A stretch of 32,206 nt of DNA, taken from Galeopterus variegatus. Lineage: Eukaryota. Positions 2,181 through 32,206 of the stretch are shown piece after piece. Numbering within the stretch: position 1 is the stretch's first letter; each line of letters opens with the position of its first letter. Location of the stretch: contig NW_007726576.1 of the NCBI RefSeq assembly GCF_000696425.1, positions 620,165-652,370 of the forward strand, in the 5' to 3' direction. A program made the translations under genes and the position numbers. Below the pieces are notes generated by a model that was not told the DNA's origin, did not search any database, and worked only from the letters and a program-made list of their open reading frames with translations.

Positions 2181-2326
2181 CTTTATTTATTTTTTTGTCC
2201 TTTTTTTGAGACCGGCCGCACCACGCTCAGCCAGTGAGCGCTGTGAGCGCACCGGTCATCCCTATATAGGATCCGAACCCGCGGCGGGAGCGCTGCACTC
2301 TCCCGAGTGCGCCACAGGCTCGGCCC
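2181..2326 (-). mobile_element. tRNA-derived SINE, family A' (short form)
   Basis: Reverse complement is gggccgagcctgtggcgcactcgggagagtgcagcgctcccgccgcgggttcggatcctatatagggatgaccggtgcgctcac..tggctgagcgtggtgcggccggtctcaaaaaaaggacaaaaaaa, the same unit as 31825-31986. TSD atgtttattttatttt at 2165-2180 and 2327-2342. Confidence 0.7.
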
Positions 2327-3310
2327 ATGTTTATTTTATTTTTAAGAATCTCTTATCCCAGGGCTAGTACTTGGCCTTCAAACCACTTGCTGACTTGAGG
2401 CGGCTCAGGAGCTCCTCATCCATCTCCTTCATTGTCATAACGAGAAATACATCCAGAGGCTGCACCGCTGGCTCCGGCAGAGGCTGGCTGGACGCTAGTC
2501 AAAGCTGTTTTCTTCTCCTGGTGCAGAGCTGAAGGTACGTTTGCCAGCCCCGTGCACCTCAGTGGGCTATGTGACTAGCTCCTGGCACATTTCCTCTCTT
2601 CCTCTTGTCTACCAGGTCAGTGATGCCAGGGTAATATTCTCCTTCTTCCCTTTCACCAGGTTAATTTTAAAACACTGAAGACAGTAGAGCCACAGTGTGG
2701 AAGGAGCAGGGTCTCTAAATGACTACCTGAAATAGAACTTTCTTGCTGACCAATATTTTACTGTGATATGGGCATAAAAGTAATCTTCAATTGTGCTAAA
2801 CTACTGAGATTCTAGTTTTTTTCTTTTTAACACCAGTTAGTGCTAATAAATTTGCACAGATAATATCCTAATTAGTGGTAAAGATATGACTGGAAACCAG
2901 TCTCCTACTTCCTTTGATGTTAACAAGTATAGTTCCATTCATATAGAACTTTCATAATTTAACGGACCATGCCTATGAGTGAATGGGAAAATAGTAACTT
3001 ACCTAGAGATCGAATGCCTTTTTGTTCAAGAAAGCTGTGTAAAACATTTGTATTAAGGTTTAATATAAAGCCCAGTTCTGGTGTAAGTTTCCAGAAGCCA
3101 TCCTGTGAAATTAAGAAAACAAATTTGTCACACTATTGAATTTCACCATCTAAGAAATTATGTGATATAAATAAAAGCTCTTCATAAGCTAGTGTCACAG
3201 TACTGCTTAGAATCTCGTAAATACTATGATCCCTATGTATCTGGTGGCATTCATAAAAAGTCTAGAAAGAGGCTTGTGTGTAGTGATTTTACAAAAATGG
3301 TACTATACAT

Positions 3311-3544
3311 TTTTTTTTCTTTTTCCTTTTTGTCTTTTTTACTGAACGGCAACAGATCGCAACCCTCAGTGTCGCGCCCGTACCGGACCGGGACCGGCAA
3401 CGGGATCGCAACCCTCGGTGTTGCACCTGCACCACGCTCAGCCAGTGAGTGGGAACTGGTCTCCACATGGGATCCGAACCCTCGGCGGGAGTGCCGCCAT
3501 GCTCCCACGCGGCGCACTCTCCAGTGCACCACTGGGCCAGCCCT
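3311..3544 (-). mobile_element. tRNA-derived SINE, family A (full length)
   Basis: Poly-T/CT tail at 3311-3350, then the reverse complement of the roughly 235-bp composite unit, ending ...cagtgcaccactgggccagccc. Probable TSD tacattttttt. Confidence 0.8.
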
Positions 3545-4790: not shown

Positions 4791-4837
4791 AACTTGCTAC
4801 TTTACTAAACTATTTTACATCAAAACAAATCATTACA

Positions 4838-5086
4838 GGGCCGGCCCGGTGGCGCACTGCTACAGTGCACCGCTTGGGAGCACGGTGGCACTCCCACCGA
4901 GGGTTCGGATCCCACATACAGACCGGTTCCCGCTCACTGGCTGAGCAAGGTGTGGGCGCAGCACTGAGGGTTGCGATCCCGTGGCCGGTCCCGGTCCGGT
5001 ACGGGCGCGACACTGAGGGTTGCGATCCGTTGCCGGACACGAAAAAAGACAAAAAGGAAAAGAAAACAAACAAACAAACAAAAAAA
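4838..5086 (+). mobile_element. tRNA-derived SINE, family A (full length, trimer-like composite)
   Basis: gggccggcccggtggcgcactgctacagtgcaccgcttgggagc...ggttcggatcccacatacagaccggttcccgctcactggctgag...gagggttgcgatcccgtggccggtcccggtccggtac...gagggttgcgatccgttgccggacacg, followed by an A-rich tail with (caaa)n. Perfect TSD atcattacag (4828-4837 and 5087-5096). Confidence 0.85.
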
Positions 5087-23648: not shown

Positions 23649-23879
23649 TTTTTTTTTTGTCTTTTGTCTTTTTCCGTGTCCGGCAACGGATCGCAACCCT
23701 CAGTGTTGCCCCCGTACCGGACCGAGGACCGGCAACGGGATCGCAACCCCCGGCGCTGCTCCCGCGCCTCGCTCAGCCAGTGAGTGGGAATCGGTCCGTA
23801 TGTGGGATCCGAACCCTCGGGCGGGAGCGCCACCGCGCTTCCCAAGCGGCGCACTATCCAGTGCGCCACCGGGCCGGCC
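23649..23879 (-). mobile_element. tRNA-derived SINE, family A (full length)
   Basis: Poly-T of 17 nt, then the reverse complement of the A unit. TSD ttgcagaattttt (23636-23648 and 23880-23892). Confidence 0.85.
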
Positions 23880-23910
23880 TTGCAGAATTTTTAAAAACAA
23901 AACAAAACAA

Positions 23911-24103
23911 GGCCGGCCTGTGGCTCACTTGGTAGAGTGCGGTGCTGATAACACCAAGGCCACGGGTTCGGATCCCATATAGGGATGGCTGGTTTGCTCA
24001 CTGGTTGAGCGTGGTGCTGACAACACCAAGCCAAGGATTGAGATCCCCTTATCGGTCATCTTTTACAAACAAAAACAAAAACAAAACAAAACAAAACAAA
24101 ACA
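23911..24103 (+). mobile_element. tRNA-derived SINE, family C (dimeric), with (AAAAC)n tail
   Basis: ggccggcctgtggctcacttggtagagtgcggtgctgataacaccaaggccacgggttcggatcccatatagggatggctggtttgctcactggttgagcgtggtgctgacaacaccaagccaaggattgagatcccctta, then (aaaac)n at 24065-24103. Confidence 0.75.
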
Positions 24104-25032: not shown

Positions 25033-25157
25033 GGGCTGGCTGATTAGCTTAGTTGGTTAGAGTGTGGTGTTAGACCACCACCAAGGTCAAGGGTTTAGAT
25101 CCCTGCAGTGGCCAGCACCAAAAAATAAAGAAAAAGAAAGAAAGAAAAGAAAAAAGA
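25033..25157 (+). mobile_element. tRNA-derived SINE, family B, with (AAAG)n-like tail
   Basis: ggggctggctgattagcttagttggttagagtgtggtgttagaccaccaccaaggtcaagggtttagatccctgcagtggccagcacc, followed by aaaaaataaagaaaaagaaagaaagaaaag. Confidence 0.7.
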
Positions 25158-26188
25158 GCTTTTAAGAAATCAGGCACTGGCAGGAGCACGGAGACCTCAC
25201 AAGCTAAGGGCAGCCCCAGCTGACAGACGGCAAGCGTGTTGGGTGCCATTGAGTGGATGGCCCACTGCTACTATAGACATTGCCACCATGCAGGGGAGTC
25301 TGTCACAGCCACCACCACTGCAGGGGCAGAGTTCTGCCACTCCTGCCACAAAGGCAGCTCACTGCCACAGCAGCAGCCACTGTCACCATCCAGGCAGCTA
25401 ACTGACCACTTGACTGCATTGACACAAAGAGGGTTACCAGTATAGCTCAGGGAAAGAGCTGAGTGATTGCAGATCTGTGTGACCAGTGGCCCATCCCAGA
25501 GGAGGAATTACACTGACACTCCATGGTAGCACACCCGGGGATGGGAGGTACATGCACAGCCCACATGACTGCCTTGATCCACGCAGAGACATGCACGAAC
25601 ACCCAGAGTGTGTAGAAACCCAGGATACCCCAAAAGAGTAAGAGACAAAGATCCCAATCACCACCAACCCATCCCCCAGCTGGGGAAGCAAAGACCCAGG
25701 AGGAGCCTCTTCCTGTAAGAAAGAGGAAAGAGAAACCCTGGTCAGGGTCACCCATTCAAACTAAGGAGCTCTAGTATACCCTAGTGCACCCATCAGGGTC
25801 AGGGGACACTAGCTGGGTGCCAACAAGCCTGCCCAGGGTCACCTGCCCCAACCAAAGAGTGACAGGGCACCCAGGTGCTTCTCCCAAGAATTTGAGAGCT
25901 CACCCATGTACTTGACAACCTAACACAGTGTCACTAACCTCGACAAGGAATCACTAAGTGCCCTAGTACTTAAGCCATTGAGGCACTCACATGCAATTCT
26001 AACGCTGAATATAGCTGAAGTACCCACACAGAGACTACACTACTGCATCTACCCAGAACCAATATTAAAACACCCTACTCAACCGTCAATATGAAACACA
26101 CCTAGGAGGAAGTCTCTCTCCTCAAAGCCCACTCTGGAGTAAAAAAAGAAGCACCTGCTCTACAAGATGACCAGACATCAATGCAGAG

Positions 26189-26587
26189 ATGCTAGAAATA
26201 CAAAAAAAAAAAAAAAAAAAAAAAAACCAAGAAAATATGACACCACCAAAGGAATACAAAAATTCTCAAGTACCAGACCCCACAGAGCAGGAAACCCTTG
26301 AAATGACTGAAAAAGAATTCCAAGCAACAATCTTAAGGAAACTCAATGAGACACAAGAAGACTCAGTTAGACAACACAATGAACTCAGAACAAGTATCCA
26401 GAATATGAAGGAGGAAACTTACAAACAGATTAATATCTTAAAAAAGAATGTAGCAGAACTCCTGGAACTAAAGGTCTCATTCAACAAAACAAAAAACACA
26501 AGGGAGAGTATAAGCAGCAGGTTAGAGCAAGCAGAAGAAAGAACTGAGAAGGGTGGGACACTAGTAAGTCCACCAACATATGTGTAA
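26189..26587 (+). pseudogene. L1 ORF1p remnant (coiled-coil region), containing an expanded A-tract and truncated
   Basis: MLEIQKKKKKKKNQENMTPPKEYKNSQVPDPTEQETLEMTEKEFQATILRKLNETQEDSVRQHNELRTSIQNMKEETYKQINILKKNVAELLELK is the typical L1 ORF1p N-terminal and coiled-coil sequence. Confidence 0.7.
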
Positions 26588-26648
26588 TAGTAGTATCAAA
26601 AGGAGAGGAGAGAGAAGAGACCAAAAAACATTCCAAGAAAGAGTGGTT

Positions 26649-26801
26649 CGCGCCGGCGTGTGGCTCACTCGGTAGAGTGCGGTGCTGATAACACCAAGGC
26701 CACAGGTTCGGATCCCATATAGGGATGGCCGGTTCGCTCACTGGCTGAGCGTGGTGCTGACAACACCAAGTCGAGGGTTAAGATCCCTTTACCGGTCATC
26801 T

Positions 26802-26825
<24 letters not shown>
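26649..26825 (+). mobile_element. tRNA-derived SINE, family C (dimeric), inserted into ORF1 of L1 #1
   Basis: gcgccggcgtgtggctcactcggtagagtgcggtgctgataacaccaaggccacaggttcggatcccatatagggatggccggttcgctcactggctgagcgtggtgctgacaacaccaagtcgagggttaagatcccttta, followed by a22. Confidence 0.8.
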
Positions 26826-26832
<7 letters not shown>

Positions 26833-27633
26833 GAACTTCTGATCTTCGGGACAAACTTCTTGAAATAACTCAGGCACACACAAAAAAAAGAAAATGAAAA
26901 AAGAATTTTTTAAAAAAAGAAAAAAATCTGAGAGCTAGCAGACAACCTTAAGCACACAAAAATCCAAATCATGGCTGTTCCAGAAGGGGAAGAGAAAGGT
27001 AAAGGCATTAAAAACATATATTCAATGAAATAATACTGGAAAACTTCCTAGGTGTAGGGAGAGACATGAACCTTCAGATCCAGAGGGCTCAAAGAACCCC
27101 AAACAGACTCAATTTGAAAAGGTCCTCTCTGAGACACATTATAGTCAGACTGGCAAAACTCAAAGTCATAGACAATCCTAAGAGAGAAAAGTGTTAAGTC
27201 ACCTAAAAGGAGTCTCCATCAGACTAACAGCAGACTTCACAACAGAAACTCTACAGGACAGAAGAGATTGGGATGATATATTTAAAATACTAAAATAAAA
27301 AAGCTGCCAGCCAAGAATACTAGACCCAGCAAGGCTATCCTTTGGAAATGAAGGAGAAATAGTATATTTCTCATACAAAAACTGCAGGAGTTCACCACAA
27401 GACGAGCCCTACAATAAATCCTTAAAAGACTGCTGAATCTGGAATGCAAAAAATTACAATCACTACCATGAATACACAAGAAAGAACAAAACCCATTGGT
27501 GGAATAAAAATGCAAACAAGAAAGAGAAAGAAACTATATCTTACCACGTCAAAAAACCAATTAATGACAAAGACAATAAAAGGGAAAGAAAGGAACAAAA
27601 GATATTTAAAACATCCAAACAGAAATCAATAAA

Positions 27634-28303
27634 ATGCCAGGACTAAGAAAATATCTTTCAGTAACAACCCTAAATGTAAATGGATTAAATTCCCTACTCA
27701 GAAAACATGAACTGACTGACTGGATTAAAAAGCTAGACCCAACTGTATGCTATCTACTAGACTCCCCTCACCTGTAAAGACACACACAGACTGATAATGA
27801 ACAGACAGAAAAAGATGCACCATGAAAATGGAAACCAAAAGTGAACAAGAGTAGCTATTCTCACATTGGCTAAAATAGACTTTAAATCAAAAACTGTAAA
27901 AATAGACAAAGAAGGCCAATATATAATGATAAAGAGACCTATACAGTAAGAAGACATAACAATCATAAATATATATATGCACTCAACACTGGAACACCCA
28001 GACATATAAAGCAAACACTATTAGAACTAAGGAAAGAGCTAAATCTCAATACAATAATAGTTGGGGACCTGACCACCCCTCTCTCAGCATTGGACAGGTC
28101 ATGTAGGGAACAAATCAATAGAGAAACACACGATTTAAACTTTCCTTTGACCAACTGGACCTAACAGCTATCTACAGAACATTTCATTCAACAACTACAG
28201 AATATACACTCTTCTCACCAGCACATGGAATATTCTCTAGGATAGACCACATGTTAGGTCACAAATCAAGTCTCAACAAATTTTTAAAAATTAAAATCAT
28301 TTC
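27634..28303 (+). pseudogene. L1 ORF2 endonuclease-domain remnant (N-terminal about 220 codons, multiple stops)
   Basis: Start motif MPGLRKYLSVTTLNVNGLNS. Downstream ..IIVGDLTTPLSALDRSCREQINRETHDLN..IDHMLGHK.., which are typical L1 EN motifs. Confidence 0.65.
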
Positions 28304-28305
28304 AG

Positions 28306-30057
28306 GTTCTGGTCAAGATGGAGGAATAGATAGTACCCAGCATCACTCTCTCCCAGAAGTCAAACAATTCACAAATATATAAAAAAGCAACAAAAGCCAA
28401 GCTGGGGCTGCTAGAGCTCAGGGGAAGAGGAGGAGAGACCTACGGAGTACATGAAGGTGGGAGAAGCCATGATGAAATTAAAAACTGCTCTGACCATTTT
28501 GTGCTGCAGCCGCTTTAAGGCTGGAACTGCTGAGCACACAGAGCAGGAGCTGGCAAAAGCTGCAGCTGTGCCCTTTGGATGGAGTTGCTTGGAGGCAGCA
28601 GGGAAGAAGAGGGCCTTGGTGGCACCAGCAAGACCACTAATGGGGTTCCCATGGACCCACATAGGAGGGAGGAGCCACAACAACTGAAGGAATGGAGCCA
28701 CTCAGAGGCCAGTGAGTTATCGCAAGGGACTGGTGCACAGCCCAGCCCATGGGAAATGTTTGCAGCACAGGCAGTGGGAGAGATGGGCCCTCTGGGGGAA
28801 CACTGGGGCACAGCAAGAACAGCTGATCTGCACCCCATTTAGCACAAGACCACTCAGAGGAGGGCCGGCCCGGTGGCGCACTGCTACAGTGCGCCGCTTG
28901 GGAGTGCGGTGGCGCTCCCGCCGAGGGTTCGGATCCCACATACAGACCGGTTCCCGCTCACTGGCTGAGCGAGGTGCGGGCGCAACACCGAGGGTTGCGA
29001 TCCCGTTGCCGGTCCGGGTCCGGTCCGGGCGGGACACTGAGGGTTGCGATCCGTTGCCGGACACGAAAAAAGACAAAAAGAAAAAAAAAAAAAAAAAAGA
29101 CCACTCAGAGGAGACTGGTCAGGAATATAGAATTACATGTGGTGCAGTTTGATGAAAAGACTGAAGCCCAGATCAGAGTTTCTACACAACCCAGGTGCAT
29201 CGAGTTTCTGGAGAGCTGGAAGTACCTATAAAGTCAAACATTATAACTTGTGCTGCACAAAAAGCCTTCCCTAGGGAAGCAGCAGCAAAGCAGCAATTTA
29301 GCTCAACCACAGAGCTCAAGTACTGGTCCCAGGAGGAAGTTCCCCCACTTCAGAATTAAGCAAAGGAAAAAACAATTAGTTTTAGCTCAGACACACTGCC
29401 AGTGCCTTGGGTCCGCCTGGGGACATGAGCCATGGAATTGGGGACTGGAGTCCCCTCCCAAAACTAGGCACACCATCAGCACCTCAGGGGCTACCAGCGG
29501 ACCCGAGGCAGAGAGTCAGGGACCAAACCCCCCTCCCATCAACCAGGCACACTGTGCCAGCACCAAGGAGCATGCCAAAAACATCACCTCCATGTGGGTG
29601 GCCCACCACAGCCACCACAATAACCATGGCTGCCGCAAAAGCGGCTAGATGGATGCCACAACCACCATGCAGATGGTCCGCCAGCCACTGGAGTATATTG
29701 ACACAGAGTTAGCAGCAGAGATAAAGAAAAGAAGATGTCTCTCTCCACAAAGCCCATTCCAGAGTGACAGAACCAGCATCTGCTCTATGATAATATTGGG
29801 GGACCTGATCACACCTCTCAGCAATGGACAGATCATCTAGGCAACAAATCAACAGAGTTACCATTATTCTTTCAGAAGGAGAGAAGAAATCAAGGGTAAT
29901 TAGAGGGGAGAGGAGGAAAGGACAGCAGGATGGGGTGACATTGGACAAGGGGCATAAAGAATAAGTAGGATTTGTAACAATATATATGCTAGTAATATTG
30001 ATTTGATCAACATATCTCAATGTTGAACCCCAGAAATATGTATAATCAAATTTGATT
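28306..30057 (+). mobile_element. Internally deleted LINE-1 (intact 5' terminus and 5'UTR joined to a short ORF2 fragment and a 3'-end-like segment), inserted in ORF2 of L1 #1
   Basis: Begins ggtcaagatggaggaatagatagtacccagcatcactctctccc, the same 5' terminus as L1 #2. Carries the ORF2 fragment IILGDLITPLSNGQII at 29785-29855. Flanked by a near-identical roughly 28-bp duplication caacaaatttttaaaaattaaaatcatttc (28275-28303 and 30058-30092). Confidence 0.5.
28863..29097 (+). mobile_element. tRNA-derived SINE, family A (full length), inserted in the 5'UTR of the deleted L1
   Basis: Full A unit with an A-rich tail ..gacaaaaagaaaaaaaaaaaaaaaaaa. Perfect 16-bp TSD agaccactcagaggag (28847-28862 and 29098-29113). 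Confidence 0.85.
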
Positions 30058-30139
30058 CAACAAAAATTTTTTTAAAAATTTAAAATCATTTCGAGTATCT
30101 TTTCAGGCCACAATGGATTAAAACTAGAAATCAAGGGAG
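30058..30139 (+). mobile_element. Resumption of L1 #1 ORF2 after the insert (..KIFLKI.NHFEYLFRPQWIKTRNQG)
   Basis: Continues the ORF2 sequence interrupted at 28303 (KFKKIEII..FS.HNG.KLEI motif). Confidence 0.5.
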
Positions 30140-30235
30140 ACTTCCGGTCAAGATGGCGGAATAGACAGTCCCTAGCATCACTCTCTCCCACAAATCAACC
30201 AATTTAAACTATAAAAACATGACATAAAGTGCATA

Positions 30236-30960
30236 CGGAACGGGGAGACGTCCAGCGGGGGAGGCAGAAGCTCCGCGGAGACCACATGTCCTGCGGGGCC
30301 GCCATCGCACGATCCGGCAGATAGGCTTCACCGCCGCCACCCAACTCCATTCCCAGCCTGGCCCAGTGCGCACAGAGTGGGGAGACGTCAAGCAGGGGAG
30401 GCAGAGGCTCGGCAGAAACCACACACCCTGTGGGGCCACGACTGTGTGATCCAGCAGGTAGGCTTCACTGCAGGCACCCAGCACCATTCCCAGCCTAGCC
30501 TAGTACACACGGAGCAGGGAGACTTCCCACAGGGGAAGCGGGAACTCCATGGGGACCACACCGCTGCAGTGCGATCCAGCAGCCCAGCCCAATGCGTATG
30601 GAGCACAGAGACATCCAGCAGGGGAGACAGAAGCTCATAGAGTACATACACCCTGTGGGGGGACCGCCACCGTGCGATGCAGCAGCAGGTAGGCTTCACC
30701 GCCGCCACCCAGCTCCATCCCAAGCCCGGCCTAGCGCCATGAAGCAGGGAGACATCCAGCAGGGGAATGGGAAGCTCCTCAGAGACCACACGTTCTGCGG
30801 TGCCTCTGCGCATCCCAGCAGCCCGGCCCAGAGCACATGGAACAGGGAGAAGTCCAGCACAAGAGGTGGAAGCTCAGCAGAGAACACACACCCTGCGATA
30901 CCACCCCGTGACCCAGCAGCCCAGCCAAGTCCGAACTAACCAGAGAGGTGGCTCCCCGGA
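30236..30960 (+). repeat. Tandem monomers (about 6 units, roughly 145 bp and roughly 90 bp variants) forming the L1 #2 5'UTR
   Basis: Repeated unit gggagac(g/a)tccagc(a/g)gggga(g/a)gcagaagctc..gagaccacac..ctg(c/t)gggg..cgc..gatccagcag..aggcttcaccgccgccacccagctccatcccagcc..gcgc... Unit starts at about 30240, 30381, 30528, 30609, 30749 and 30846. Confidence 0.7.
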
Positions 30961-31107
30961 GAGGCCCAACACCTGAAGCAACCACACACACAAGGCACTA
31001 ATGGCCAACAGAGCAGTCACTGAGGTAGGAATACCAAATTGGCAACCAGAGCAACATCTCAGTAAGTCAATAGTGTCAAACCTGTGGACTGTGAAACCCC
31101 TGCCACA

Positions 31108-31560
31108 ATGAATAAACATCAAAGAAAAGATAACAGAAATACAAAAAATCAAGAAAATACACCACCAAAGGGTAATAACTCTCAAGCTCTAGAACCCATA
31201 GAACAAGAAGCCCTTGAAATGACTGACAAGGAATTTTGAGTGACAATTCTAAGGAAACTGAATGAGATACAAGAAAACTCAACTAGACATGATGATGAAA
31301 CGAGGAAAAGTATACAGGACCTGAAAGAAGAAATGTACAAGGAAATCAATGCCCTGAAAAAAAATGTAGCAGAACTTGCCAAACTGAAGAAGTTATTCAG
31401 CGAAATAAAAAACACAACAGAGAGTTTAACCAGCAGCCTTGCAGAAGTTGAAGAGAGAACCTCTGAACTTGAAGATGGGCTGTTTGAAATAACACAAGCA
31501 GACAAAAAAAAAGAAAAAAAAAAGAAAAAAGAATCAAAGGCATTGAAGAAAATCTGAGAG
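31108..31560 (+). pseudogene. L1 #2 ORF1 remnant (in-frame TGA at about 31236; A-tract expansion at about 31500)
   Basis: ORF1p coiled-coil sequence as above. Track ORF 31240-31557. Confidence 0.65.
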
Positions 31561-31824
31561 AGATATCAGACAACTTTAAGCGCTCAAATATCCAAGTCAT
31601 GGGTATTACAGAAGGGGAGGAAAAAGGAGATTGCATTGAAAACATATTCAACAAAATAGTGGCAGAAAACTTCCCAGGTATAGGAAAAGTCACAGATCTT
31701 CAGATCCAGGAAGCTCAACAATCTCCAAACATATTCCACCCATAAAGGTCTTCTACAAGACCTGTTATAGTCAAATTGGCAAAACTCAAAAACAAAGAGA
31801 GAATCTTAAAAGCTACAAGAGAGT

Positions 31825-31986
31825 GGGCCGAGCCCGTGGCACACTCGGGAGAGTGCGACACTGGGAGCACAGTAGCGCTCCCGCCGCGGGTTCGGATCCT
31901 ACATGGGGATGACCGGTGCGCTCACAGTGCTCACTGGCTGAGGGCGGTGCAGCCGGTCTCAAAAAGGACAAAAAACAAAAAAAAAA
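31825..31986 (+). mobile_element. tRNA-derived SINE, family A' (short form), inserted in L1 #2 near the ORF1 C-terminus
   Basis: gggccgagcccgtggcacactcgggagagtgcgacactgggagcacagtagcgctcccgccgcgggttcggatcctacatggggatgaccggtgcgctcacagtgctcactggctgagggcggtgcagccggtctcaaaaaggacaaaaaacaaaaaaaaa. TSD aaagctacaaga (31813-31824 and 31984-31995). Confidence 0.8.
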
Positions 31987-32206
31987 GCTACAAGACAGAA
32001 GCATCAAATCATCTATATGTGAGTCCCAATCAGACTAACATCAGACTTTTCATCACAAACCCTAAAAGCCAGAAAGGAATGGGATGATATACTCAAAATA
32101 CTAAAAGACAGAGATTGTCAGCCAAGAATACTCTACCTCACAAGACTATCCTTCTGAAATGAAGGGCAAATAGTATATTTCTCAGATAAACAAAAACTGC
32201 AGGAGT

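Follow-up and report, generated by a model that had tools for sequence, protein, structure and literature searches.

A decayed LINE-1 of Galeopterus variegatus interrupted by later LINE-1 and SINE copies in a nested stack

Results

Composition of the locus

A 7-kb stretch of the Galeopterus variegatus contig NW_007726576.1 consists of an old LINE-1 that was hit by two later LINE-1 copies and three tRNA-derived SINEs. The window, i.e. the whole stretch of DNA analysed, is 32,206 nt long (620,165 to 652,370 of the forward strand), and all positions refer to it. The host element, named L1-1 here, is interrupted three times: by a 279-bp insert in ORF1, by the ORF-less L1-del and by the 5'-complete L1-2. 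L1-del carries SINE-A and L1-2 carries SINE-A', each with its own TSD. The stack very probably arose by L1-mediated nested retrotransposition, through six insertions, all in the same orientation, that form three levels of nesting. An earlier note on this DNA had described these pieces, and all of them were found at, or a few bases from, the coordinates given there. Its view of a nested stack of L1-mediated insertions in which the host predates the guest was borne out; its "at least four rounds" holds as to several rounds of insertion, but the count is six. The following features were assigned:

About 25180-28306, resuming at about 30093-30139, plus strand: L1-1, the old and decayed host
25180-26168, plus strand: 5'UTR-like region of L1-1, contiguous with ORF1, its 5' boundary lying somewhere within 25159-25273
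26169-26545, plus strand: N-terminal part of L1-1 ORF1 (tblastn), ending in the left copy of the composite insert's TSD (26533-26545)
26546-26824, plus strand: composite insert of 279 bp within L1-1 ORF1
26546-26648, plus strand (sense): 103-bp L1-ORF1 fragment, start of the RRM domain, from a different L1
26649-26824, plus strand: SINE-C, a dimeric tRNA-derived body (26649-26803) with a pure A21 tail
26825-28306, plus strand: continuation of L1-1, starting with the right TSD copy (26825-26837) and covering the remainder of ORF1, the spacer between the ORFs and the ORF2 endonuclease
28273-28303/05, plus strand: left copy of the L1-del duplication, with a TTTTT/AAAAA endonuclease site at 28285/28286
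28307 to about 30056 (possibly 30073), plus strand: L1-del, an ORF-less L1 interrupting the L1-1 ORF2 endonuclease
28307-28394, plus strand: 5' leader of L1-del, by homology to the start of L1-2
28395-28862 and 29114-29789, plus strand: 5'UTR of L1-del, ending at the ORF1 ATG and split by SINE-A
28863-29096, plus strand: SINE-A, a trimer-like tRNA-derived SINE in the L1-del 5'UTR
29790-29857, plus strand: endonuclease fragment of L1-del, 68 bp, by sequence homology
29858-30056, possibly to 30073, plus strand: presumed 3' end of L1-del, from position and architecture only
30057-30139, plus strand: right copy of the L1-del duplication (30057-30092/95), then L1-1 ORF2
30140/42-32206 (window end), plus strand: L1-2, with a full-length 5' end at 30142
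To 31107, plus strand: 5'UTR of L1-2, tandem monomers with a period of 137
From 31108, cut by the window end, plus strand: L1-2 ORF1, by Pfam domains
31824-31982, plus strand: SINE-A', a monomer-type tRNA-derived SINE in L1-2 ORF1

The host is restored by excision of the inserts

When the inserts were excised, the pre-insertion L1-1 regained an uninterrupted ORF1 together with an endonuclease domain, as the earlier note had proposed to check. Past the guest and its TSD, the host resumes in register at the composite insert, L1-del, SINE-A and SINE-A'. The exact flanking repeats are 13, 17, 13 and 13 bp long, the last one lying inside the 31/36-bp duplication around L1-del, and an exact flanking repeat of at least 13 bp was seen in 1 of 3000 random SINE-sized intervals.

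ORF1 of L1-1 was collinear with that of L1-2 at 72-77% nucleotide identity (26203-26544/31125-31460, 26826-27172/31450-31798 and 27183-27391/31993-32206), and residues 14-118 of L1-2 ORF1 matched 26225-26545 at 64% identity by tblastn. The collinearity breaks exactly at both SINE inserts, each L1 providing the empty site for the insert of the other. The ORF2 endonuclease runs from the ATG at 27634 to 28306 (about residue 221) and continues over about 30093-30139 (about residues 222-238). With 28307-30092 excised, it aligned over residues 1-238 with human L1 ORF2p (1vyb/8uw3; E=8e-45). An alignment with pangolin ORF2 was also obtained, in which 30070-30132 corresponded to residues 234-254, and the Pfam domain Exo_endo_phos was marginal (24.2 bits versus a cutoff of 24.5). 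In the 5'UTR-like region, nhmmer matched 25271-25501 (E=2e-6) and 26103-26162 (E=9e-5) to the final ~210 bp of the L1-del 5'UTR, and a 650-bp block (25456-26105) was present that L1-del does not have.

L1-1 would be the old target, later hit three times by target-primed reverse transcription. The shared orientation of the inserts may be due to the composition of the L1 sense strand, which is rich in A and in which TTAAAA is much commoner than TTTTAA (11 versus 2 on the host sense strand). All three LINE-1 copies are dead or incomplete, and no RT domain was found within the window (L1-1 is interrupted before it and continues outside the window, L1-2 is cut by the window end and L1-del has it deleted).

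L1-del and its flanking duplication

L1-del and L1-2 begin at the same consensus nucleotide, and the first 87 bp of L1-del aligned from position 1 with the start of L1-2 at 30142 (81% identity). The region 29858-30056 gave no significant match to any L1 3' end searched. In a local alignment of the flanks, 28273-28303 and 30057-30092 (31/36 bp) differed by no substitutions and by three homopolymer indels. Since the similarity ends at both edges, the repeat does not belong to any longer duplicated segment; a segmental duplication, which the earlier note had named as an alternative origin, was rejected because the repeat is confined to 31/36 bp. The insertion at 28303-28306 and its duplication stand, but the "roughly 28 bp" becomes 31/36 bp once gaps are allowed, and a poly(A) is all but missing, the tail having at most 5 A.

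The apparent 28-bp TSD may be composed of an 18-20-bp TSD from the TTTTT/AAAAA site and a stretch that looks like the L1 3' end. Because the last 17 nt of L1-del are similar to the host sequence immediately before the canonical nick, the boundary between the TSD and the L1 3' end is ambiguous. A non-canonical route (internal or microhomology priming, or break capture), in which the whole 31 bp would be duplication and a poly(A) would never have existed, is rather unlikely, and predicts a consensus 3' end of the L1-del subfamily of ...AATCAAATTTGA(A)n. It would account for the match of the two copies over 31 bp without substitutions, which takes in 13 nt (TCAACAAATTTTT) preceding the canonical nick, and for the lack of an A-run longer than 5 before the right copy. 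However, a perfect TTTTT/AAAAA site lies inside the duplication and gives an 18-20-bp TSD beginning with A5, and other mammalian L1s end in a similar AAAAATT...A(n), the pangolin L1 in ...GATTAAAAATTAAAAAAA. Endonuclease-independent insertions are, in addition, usually without TSDs. In the canonical reading, L1-del, full-length at its 5' end and devoid of ORFs, would have inserted at the TTTTT/AAAAA site in the ORF2 endonuclease region of L1-1, and the subfamily consensus should end in ...GATTCAACAAAAATTTTTTT(A)n.

Three SINEs with their own TSDs

The insert in L1-1 ORF1 is bounded by a 13-bp exact duplication (AGAAGAAAGAACT) at 26533-26545 and 26825-26837, and the empty-site alignment of L1-1 with L1-2 showed no gap across the excision point. 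The dimeric SINE-C reported here previously does start at 26649, but the actual insertion covers 26546-26824 and has 103 extra bases inside the TSD. In a blastx search against 95 L1 ORF1 proteins, these 103 bp reached 35 bits (E=6e-7; best shuffled control 20 bits), with 67 matches, all at one ORF1 position. The fragment was only ~60% identical to the homologous region of L1-1 itself. For SINE-C, the second monomer gave an Rfam tRNA match (26728-26797; 33.4 bits, gathering score 29), and copies were found elsewhere in the window at 10698-10866 (minus strand) and 23911-24085 (plus strand) with 90-92% identity. The ORF1 fragment is fused directly to the 5' end of SINE-C at 26648/26649 (junction AAGAAAGAGTGGTTC/GCGCCGGCG) with no A-run between them. 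The composite therefore has two unrelated RNA-derived parts in one orientation with one TSD and one 3' A-tail, which are the features of a chimeric retrocopy. A chimera of a 103-bp piece of another L1's ORF1 and a dimeric SINE would have inserted into L1-1 ORF1.

SINE-A is flanked by a perfect TSD of 16-17 bp (AAGACCACTCAGAGGAG; 28846-28862 and 29097-29113), in agreement with the 16 bp claimed before. It diverged by 2.9% from the local consensus and kept 27 of 29 CpGs; the 6 further copies in the window were aligned and each has its own TSD. The insertion of SINE-A' into L1-2 stood as well, with its TSD (31808-31820(23) and 31983-31995(98)) corrected from 12 bp to an exact 13 bp, or to 16 bp if one mismatch is allowed (15/16). 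SINE-A' was 80% identical to a copy at 2182-2353 (minus strand), and its empty site is visible in L1-1 at ~27172-27183. Neither SINE-A nor SINE-A' had an Rfam match; both align to the SINE-C-type head and share GGTTCGGATCC. The window contains 7 SINE-A, 3 SINE-C and 2 SINE-A' copies, and the TSD differs in each. A tRNA-related head (by Rfam for SINE-C monomer 2), an A-rich tail and multiple copies identify them as tRNA-derived SINEs. SINE-A would have landed later in the L1-del 5'UTR, and SINE-A' later in L1-2 ORF1.

Order of arrival

The CpG observed/expected ratios were 0.13 for the L1-1 5'UTR, 0.12 for the L1-del 5'UTR, 0.46 for the L1-2 5'UTR and 0.84-1.06 for the SINEs (SINE-C, 0.92); CpG decay is a rough clock, since it varies with the starting CpG content and with methylation. 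Together with the integrity of tails and TSDs, it suggests the age order L1-1 ≥ L1-del > L1-2 > SINEs. The order of L1-1, later L1s and then SINEs proposed previously is compatible with CpG decay, the integrity of TSDs and poly(A) and the 2.9% divergence of SINE-A, but nesting yields a partial order and leaves SINE-C versus L1-del, SINE-C versus L1-2 and L1-del versus L1-2 unordered.

It is very unlikely that the source copies of L1-del and L1-2 already contained the SINEs (and the internal deletions) and brought them in, so that the SINE layer would not date the locus. Nesting alone is compatible with such a transfer, and the ORF-less L1-del would anyway have been mobilised in trans or been deleted after insertion. 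A co-mobilised SINE, however, would be as old as the insertion of its carrier or older, whereas the CpG observed/expected ratio is 1.06 in SINE-A versus 0.12 in L1-del, and 0.84 in SINE-A' versus 0.46 (5'UTR) and 0.10 (ORF1) in L1-2. The TSDs are perfect or 15/16, and the A-tails are long and pure.

L1-2 and the integrity of the stack

ORF1 of L1-2 contains the Pfam domains Transposase_22 (PF02994, RRM; E=2e-17) and Tnp_22_dsRBD (PF17490; E=5e-15). Homologues of its ORF1p were found in the protein database with E-values down to 2e-85, and no close relative of these L1s was present in the database searched. The 5' end at 30140/42 agrees with the position of 30140 given earlier. That L1-2 is a true insertion into L1-1 is inferred; the window ends before its 3' end, its TSD and the point at which L1-1 would resume. 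The element, with its full-length 5' end and monomeric 5'UTR, would have inserted ~50-60 bp further along L1-1 than L1-del, and a poly(A) should follow downstream, then a repeat of ~AAAACTAGAAATCAAGGGAG and the remaining L1-1 ORF2.

We consider it highly improbable that the nest was created by faulty assembly, or by recombination or segmental duplication between L1 copies lying close together. Mis-assembly is common where repeats abound, and a single assembly was examined, but every junction has a short TSD of its own, excision brings back the host frames with single-base accuracy and the flanking duplication ends at 31/36 bp. Overlapping parts of the three L1s share only 72-84% identity, which is too divergent for collapse or mis-joining. 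Least credible of all is one contiguous rearranged L1 spanning 28307-30057 and 30140 onward, an alternative raised in the earlier note and rejected here: the two pieces have the 87-bp leader in common, lie near each other and share their orientation, but between them 30057-30139 holds the second duplication copy and L1-1 endonuclease in register (residues ~213-238, continuing over 30093-30139), and both have the same consensus 5' nucleotide as their start, which is what two independent full-length transcripts would show.

Discussion

Nested retroposons serve for relative dating in the TinT ('transposition in transposition') approach (Churakov et al. 2010, PMC3014933). The locus follows the same host-before-guest logic, a younger element interrupting an older one that resumes past the guest and its TSD, but TinT uses thousands of nests genome-wide, whereas a single locus gives a partial order only. 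The ORF1 Pfam domains and the endonuclease homologous to human ORF2p are those of mammalian LINE-1. TSDs and a TTTTT/AAAAA target are present too; the tail of L1-del has at most 5 A and its 3' boundary is ambiguous. L1-del differs in that, apart from the 5'UTR, it retains no more than 68 bp of the endonuclease region and a presumed 3' end. A monomeric 5'UTR like that of L1-2 is of a kind known from mouse L1.

Dermopteran t-SINE/CYN elements are cited in PMC3531059 (Piskurek et al. 2003; Schmitz & Zischler 2003). The SINEs of the locus resemble them in their GGCCGG... heads, the B-box-like GGTTCGGATCC, the monomer, dimer and trimer architectures, the A-rich tails, the TSDs and the high copy number in the window. 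They may belong to the t-SINE/CYN family.

In chimeric L1-mediated insertions of the U6/L1 and Alu/L1 type, the non-L1 RNA is 5' and the L1 is 3' (PMC13174262, PMC4476161). The composite insert likewise joins two RNA-derived parts of one orientation within a single TSD and with a single 3' A-tail, but its polarity is reversed, with an internal L1-ORF1 fragment 5' and the SINE 3'. It is possible, though we think it doubtful, that L1-del belongs to an ORF-less non-autonomous family (5' leader/5'UTR plus a short 3' end) that was trans-mobilised full-length, and likewise that the 103-bp fragment and SINE-C form a reverse-polarity L1-to-SINE template-switch chimera. To our knowledge, this class of chimeras has barely been catalogued.

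The reverse-polarity L1-fragment/SINE chimera, the ORF-less 5'-complete L1 copy and the L1 lineage with a monomeric 5'UTR are minor leads, whose significance would hang on genome-wide data. A transposon-in-transposon stack is an ordinary, already known phenomenon; nested retrotransposons occur throughout mammalian genomes, and genome-wide relative dating is already built on them. The locus carries little weight beyond annotation and is a clean teaching example.

Structure of the host element

The locus consists of an old LINE-1 (L1) and the retroposons nested in it:

25180-28306, resuming at about 30093-30139: L1#1, the host L1
26546-26824: composite insert in ORF1 of L1#1, containing the dimeric SINE-C
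28307 to about 30056/30073: L1-del, an ORF-less L1 in ORF2 of L1#1
28863-29096: SINE-A, carried by L1-del
30140/42 to the window end: L1#2, an L1 with a full-length 5' end
31824-31982: SINE-A', carried by L1#2

The host was in an advanced state of decay: it had numerous stops and frameshifts and a CpG observed/expected ratio of 0.07-0.13. Its 5' boundary fell somewhere within 25159-25273. Its ORF1 was collinear with that of L1#2 (72-77% nucleotide and 47-66% protein identity), and its ORF2 started at 27634. When 28307-30092 was left out, the conceptual endonuclease aligned end to end with the human L1 ORF2p endonuclease (residues 1-238, E=8e-45). The endonuclease region also matched a pangolin ORF2. 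Searching a large protein database with endonuclease and ORF1 queries returned no close L1 relatives, only distant mammalian L1s, the best of them about 50-67% identical and aligned over only part of the length.

The L1#1 5'UTR segments 25271-25501 and 26103-26162 were homologous to the final ~210 bp of the L1-del 5'UTR. There the two segments are contiguous (29577-29788), and in L1#1 a 650-bp block (25456-26105) splits them. Either L1#1 gained this block by a further insertion or an expansion, or L1-del lost it by deletion. No second copy of this block was found within the window. A pure A25 run at 26202-26226, inside the decayed ORF1, corresponds to about 6 A's in L1#2; a recently expanded homopolymer or the insertion of a tail alone may explain it.

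Insertion of L1-del into ORF2

L1-del is flanked by a duplication (28273-28303 and 30057-30092) whose copies align over 31 bases and differ by three homopolymer indels and no substitutions; after the right copy, the ORF2 of L1#1 continues in register. A segmental duplication, which the earlier note had considered as the source of this repeat, was refuted because the similarity ends at both edges. The first 87 bp of L1-del, from its start at 28307, align from position 1 with the start of L1#2 (30142) at 81% identity. Thus, both are 5'-complete copies from a lineage with a single transcription start. This leader is all that L1-del shares with the 5'UTR of L1#2. The L1-del 5'UTR reaches the ORF1 ATG, with 29731-29787 being 79% identical to L1#1 26106-26162, and forms a bridge between an L1#2-like leader and an L1#1-like end. 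Next come 68 bp from the endonuclease region (29790-29857), which share 84% identity with L1#1 28054-28123, and then a last segment, 29858-30056, with a G-rich tract and then an AT-rich end. Position and architecture suggest that this segment is the L1 3' end; it had no significant nucleotide or protein match to the pangolin L1 (L001) used as an outside comparator, and no other L1 3' ends were present in the window.

Deletion junctions of L1-del, two: CTCTATGATAATATTGGGGGACC and CAACAGAGTTACCATTATTC

A spliced L1 as the origin of the first deletion was rejected, the junction having no GT...AG.

The target of L1-del, TTTTTAAAAA (28281-28290), is a perfect palindrome of the endonuclease consensus. 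A perfect TTTTT/AAAAA site between 28285 and 28286 gives a target-site duplication (TSD) of 18-20 bp starting with A5. L1-del would then end in ...GATTCAACAAAAATTTTTTT, recalling the pangolin L1 end ...GATTAAAAATTAAAAAAA. This shorter TSD leaves a 13-nt likeness to the host without explanation: the host sequence upstream of the target, TCAACAAATTTTT, is mirrored at the L1-del end, TCAACAAAAATTTTTTT, a coincidence unless the TSD is the whole 31 bp. If all 31 bp are the TSD, L1-del has no poly(A).

The composite insert in ORF1

A dimeric SINE-C had earlier been placed at 26649-26825. The SINE body is present; it is 90-92% identical to the two other copies in the window, and its second monomer matched tRNA in Rfam. 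The real insert is longer. The exact repeat AGAAGAAAGAACT flanks it at 26533-45 and 26825-37, and without 26546-26837 the alignment of L1#1 to L1#2 was gap-free (...AEERT/SDL... vs ...VEERT/SEL...), so that the insert includes 103 bp upstream of SINE-C (26546-26648).

This 103-bp piece is in sense orientation, and its translation, EGWDTSKSTNICVIVVSKGEERE, aligns with the beginning of the RRM in L1 ORF1p. The one comparison that settled its identity was blastx with 95 retrieved L1 ORF1 proteins, where it matched pig ELWDNVKRTNICIIGVPEGEERE with 35 bits (E=6e-7); 67 matches fell at the same position, and shuffled controls reached at most 20 bits. Nothing significant was found against the in-window ORF1s (nucleotide), Pfam or PDB, and the window held no further copy. 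Since the piece is only ~60% identical to the corresponding region of L1#1, it derived from another L1. The piece runs straight into the 5' end of SINE-C without an A-run in between, and a single 13-bp TSD encloses both.

Junction of the 103-bp ORF1 piece and SINE-C: AAGAAAGAGTGGTTCGCGCCGGCG

Two mechanisms explain the composite insert equally well. Reverse transcription could have switched template from the SINE RNA to an L1 RNA, or an L1 transcript ending in a resident SINE could have been retrocopied with 5' truncation. Catalogued chimeric L1-mediated insertions include Alu/L1 and U6/L1 (PMC13174262, PMC4476161); a template switch here would have the reverse polarity.

Probable insertion of L1#2

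The ORF2 of L1#1 breaks off at about residue 238 (30139-30141), where L1#2 starts at the consensus 5' nucleotide. The L1#2 5'UTR has about six tandem monomers (30228-30930), the long ones of 137 bp and the short ones of ~95 bp, and retains 39 CpGs (observed/expected 0.46). Its ORF1 encodes Pfam Transposase_22 and dsRBD domains and has three stops and one frameshift. An L1 keeps its own 3' end when it inserts, and therefore a 3'-less L1#1 abutting the full-length 5' end of L1#2 points most readily to a host that was interrupted. From this we infer that L1#2 inserted into L1#1. The window ends in the ORF1 of L1#2, before its 3' end and any resumption of L1#1. The repeat after the L1#2 poly(A) would then be approximately AAAACTAGAAATCAAGGGAG, beyond the window end.

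The SINEs

The window DNA is mammalian and rich in tRNA-derived SINEs, which resemble the colugo t-SINE/CYN family (monomer/dimer/trimer). The 32 kb contain seven SINE-A (~205 bp), three SINE-C and two monomer-type SINE-A' copies, each with its own TSD. Those outside the locus are:

1-80, 3310-3544, 4837-5074, 11266-11498, 12575-12811, 23644-23879: SINE-A, six further copies
10698-10866, 23911-24085: SINE-C, two further copies
2182-2353: SINE-A', further copy

SINE density is very high across 1-25160. Two SINEs abut side by side at 23644-24085, and monomer SINEs also occur, such as 25033-25158 adjoining L1#1 on its upstream side. A fragment of an old L1 ORF1 lies on the - strand at 315-500 (tblastn with L1#2 ORF1 residues 233-294, E=6e-8).

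The SINE-A in L1-del has a perfect 16-17-bp TSD, diverges by 2.9% from the six-copy local consensus and has kept 27 of 29 CpGs. The TSD of SINE-A' is 13 bp exact, or 15/16, and its empty site is visible in L1#1. For a control, random SINE-sized intervals were tested, and 1 of 3000 had a flanking exact repeat of at least 13 bp.

Order and orientation of the insertions

Nesting proves that L1#1 predates the composite insert and L1-del and, given the inferred insertion of L1#2, suggests that it predates L1#2 as well. It also proves that L1-del was there before SINE-A, and L1#2 before SINE-A', provided that neither SINE arrived together with its L1. Such joint arrival is unlikely, because decay is far less advanced in the SINEs than in the L1s that carry them. 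The order among the three first-level guests, and of SINE-C relative to the later L1s, is not set by nesting. Nesting alone is therefore insufficient for the order in the earlier note, L1#1, later L1s and then SINEs, but the proxies agree with it. The CpG observed/expected ratio was 0.13 in the L1#1 5'UTR, 0.12 in the L1-del 5'UTR, 0.46 in that of L1#2 and 0.84-1.06 in the three SINEs. The TSD of L1-del contains three indels and its tail is nearly absent; the SINEs have intact TSDs and pure tails of A10-A21. The bridging 5'UTR of L1-del also fits. All three proxies are rough clocks.

All five guests across 25180-32206 are oriented like the host L1. Adenine makes up 40% of the host sense strand, which has 11 TTAAAA vs 2 TTTTAA; the + strand is A-rich over 25-32 kb. 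With the endonuclease preference, same-sense insertion is expected from these counts, and the preference probably accounts for the bias.

Taken together, the nested stack was confirmed as an observation, and its interpretation held in part, with corrections. Nested retroposons, and relative dating from them, are long established (PMC3014933), and this locus is a tidy, ordinary case.
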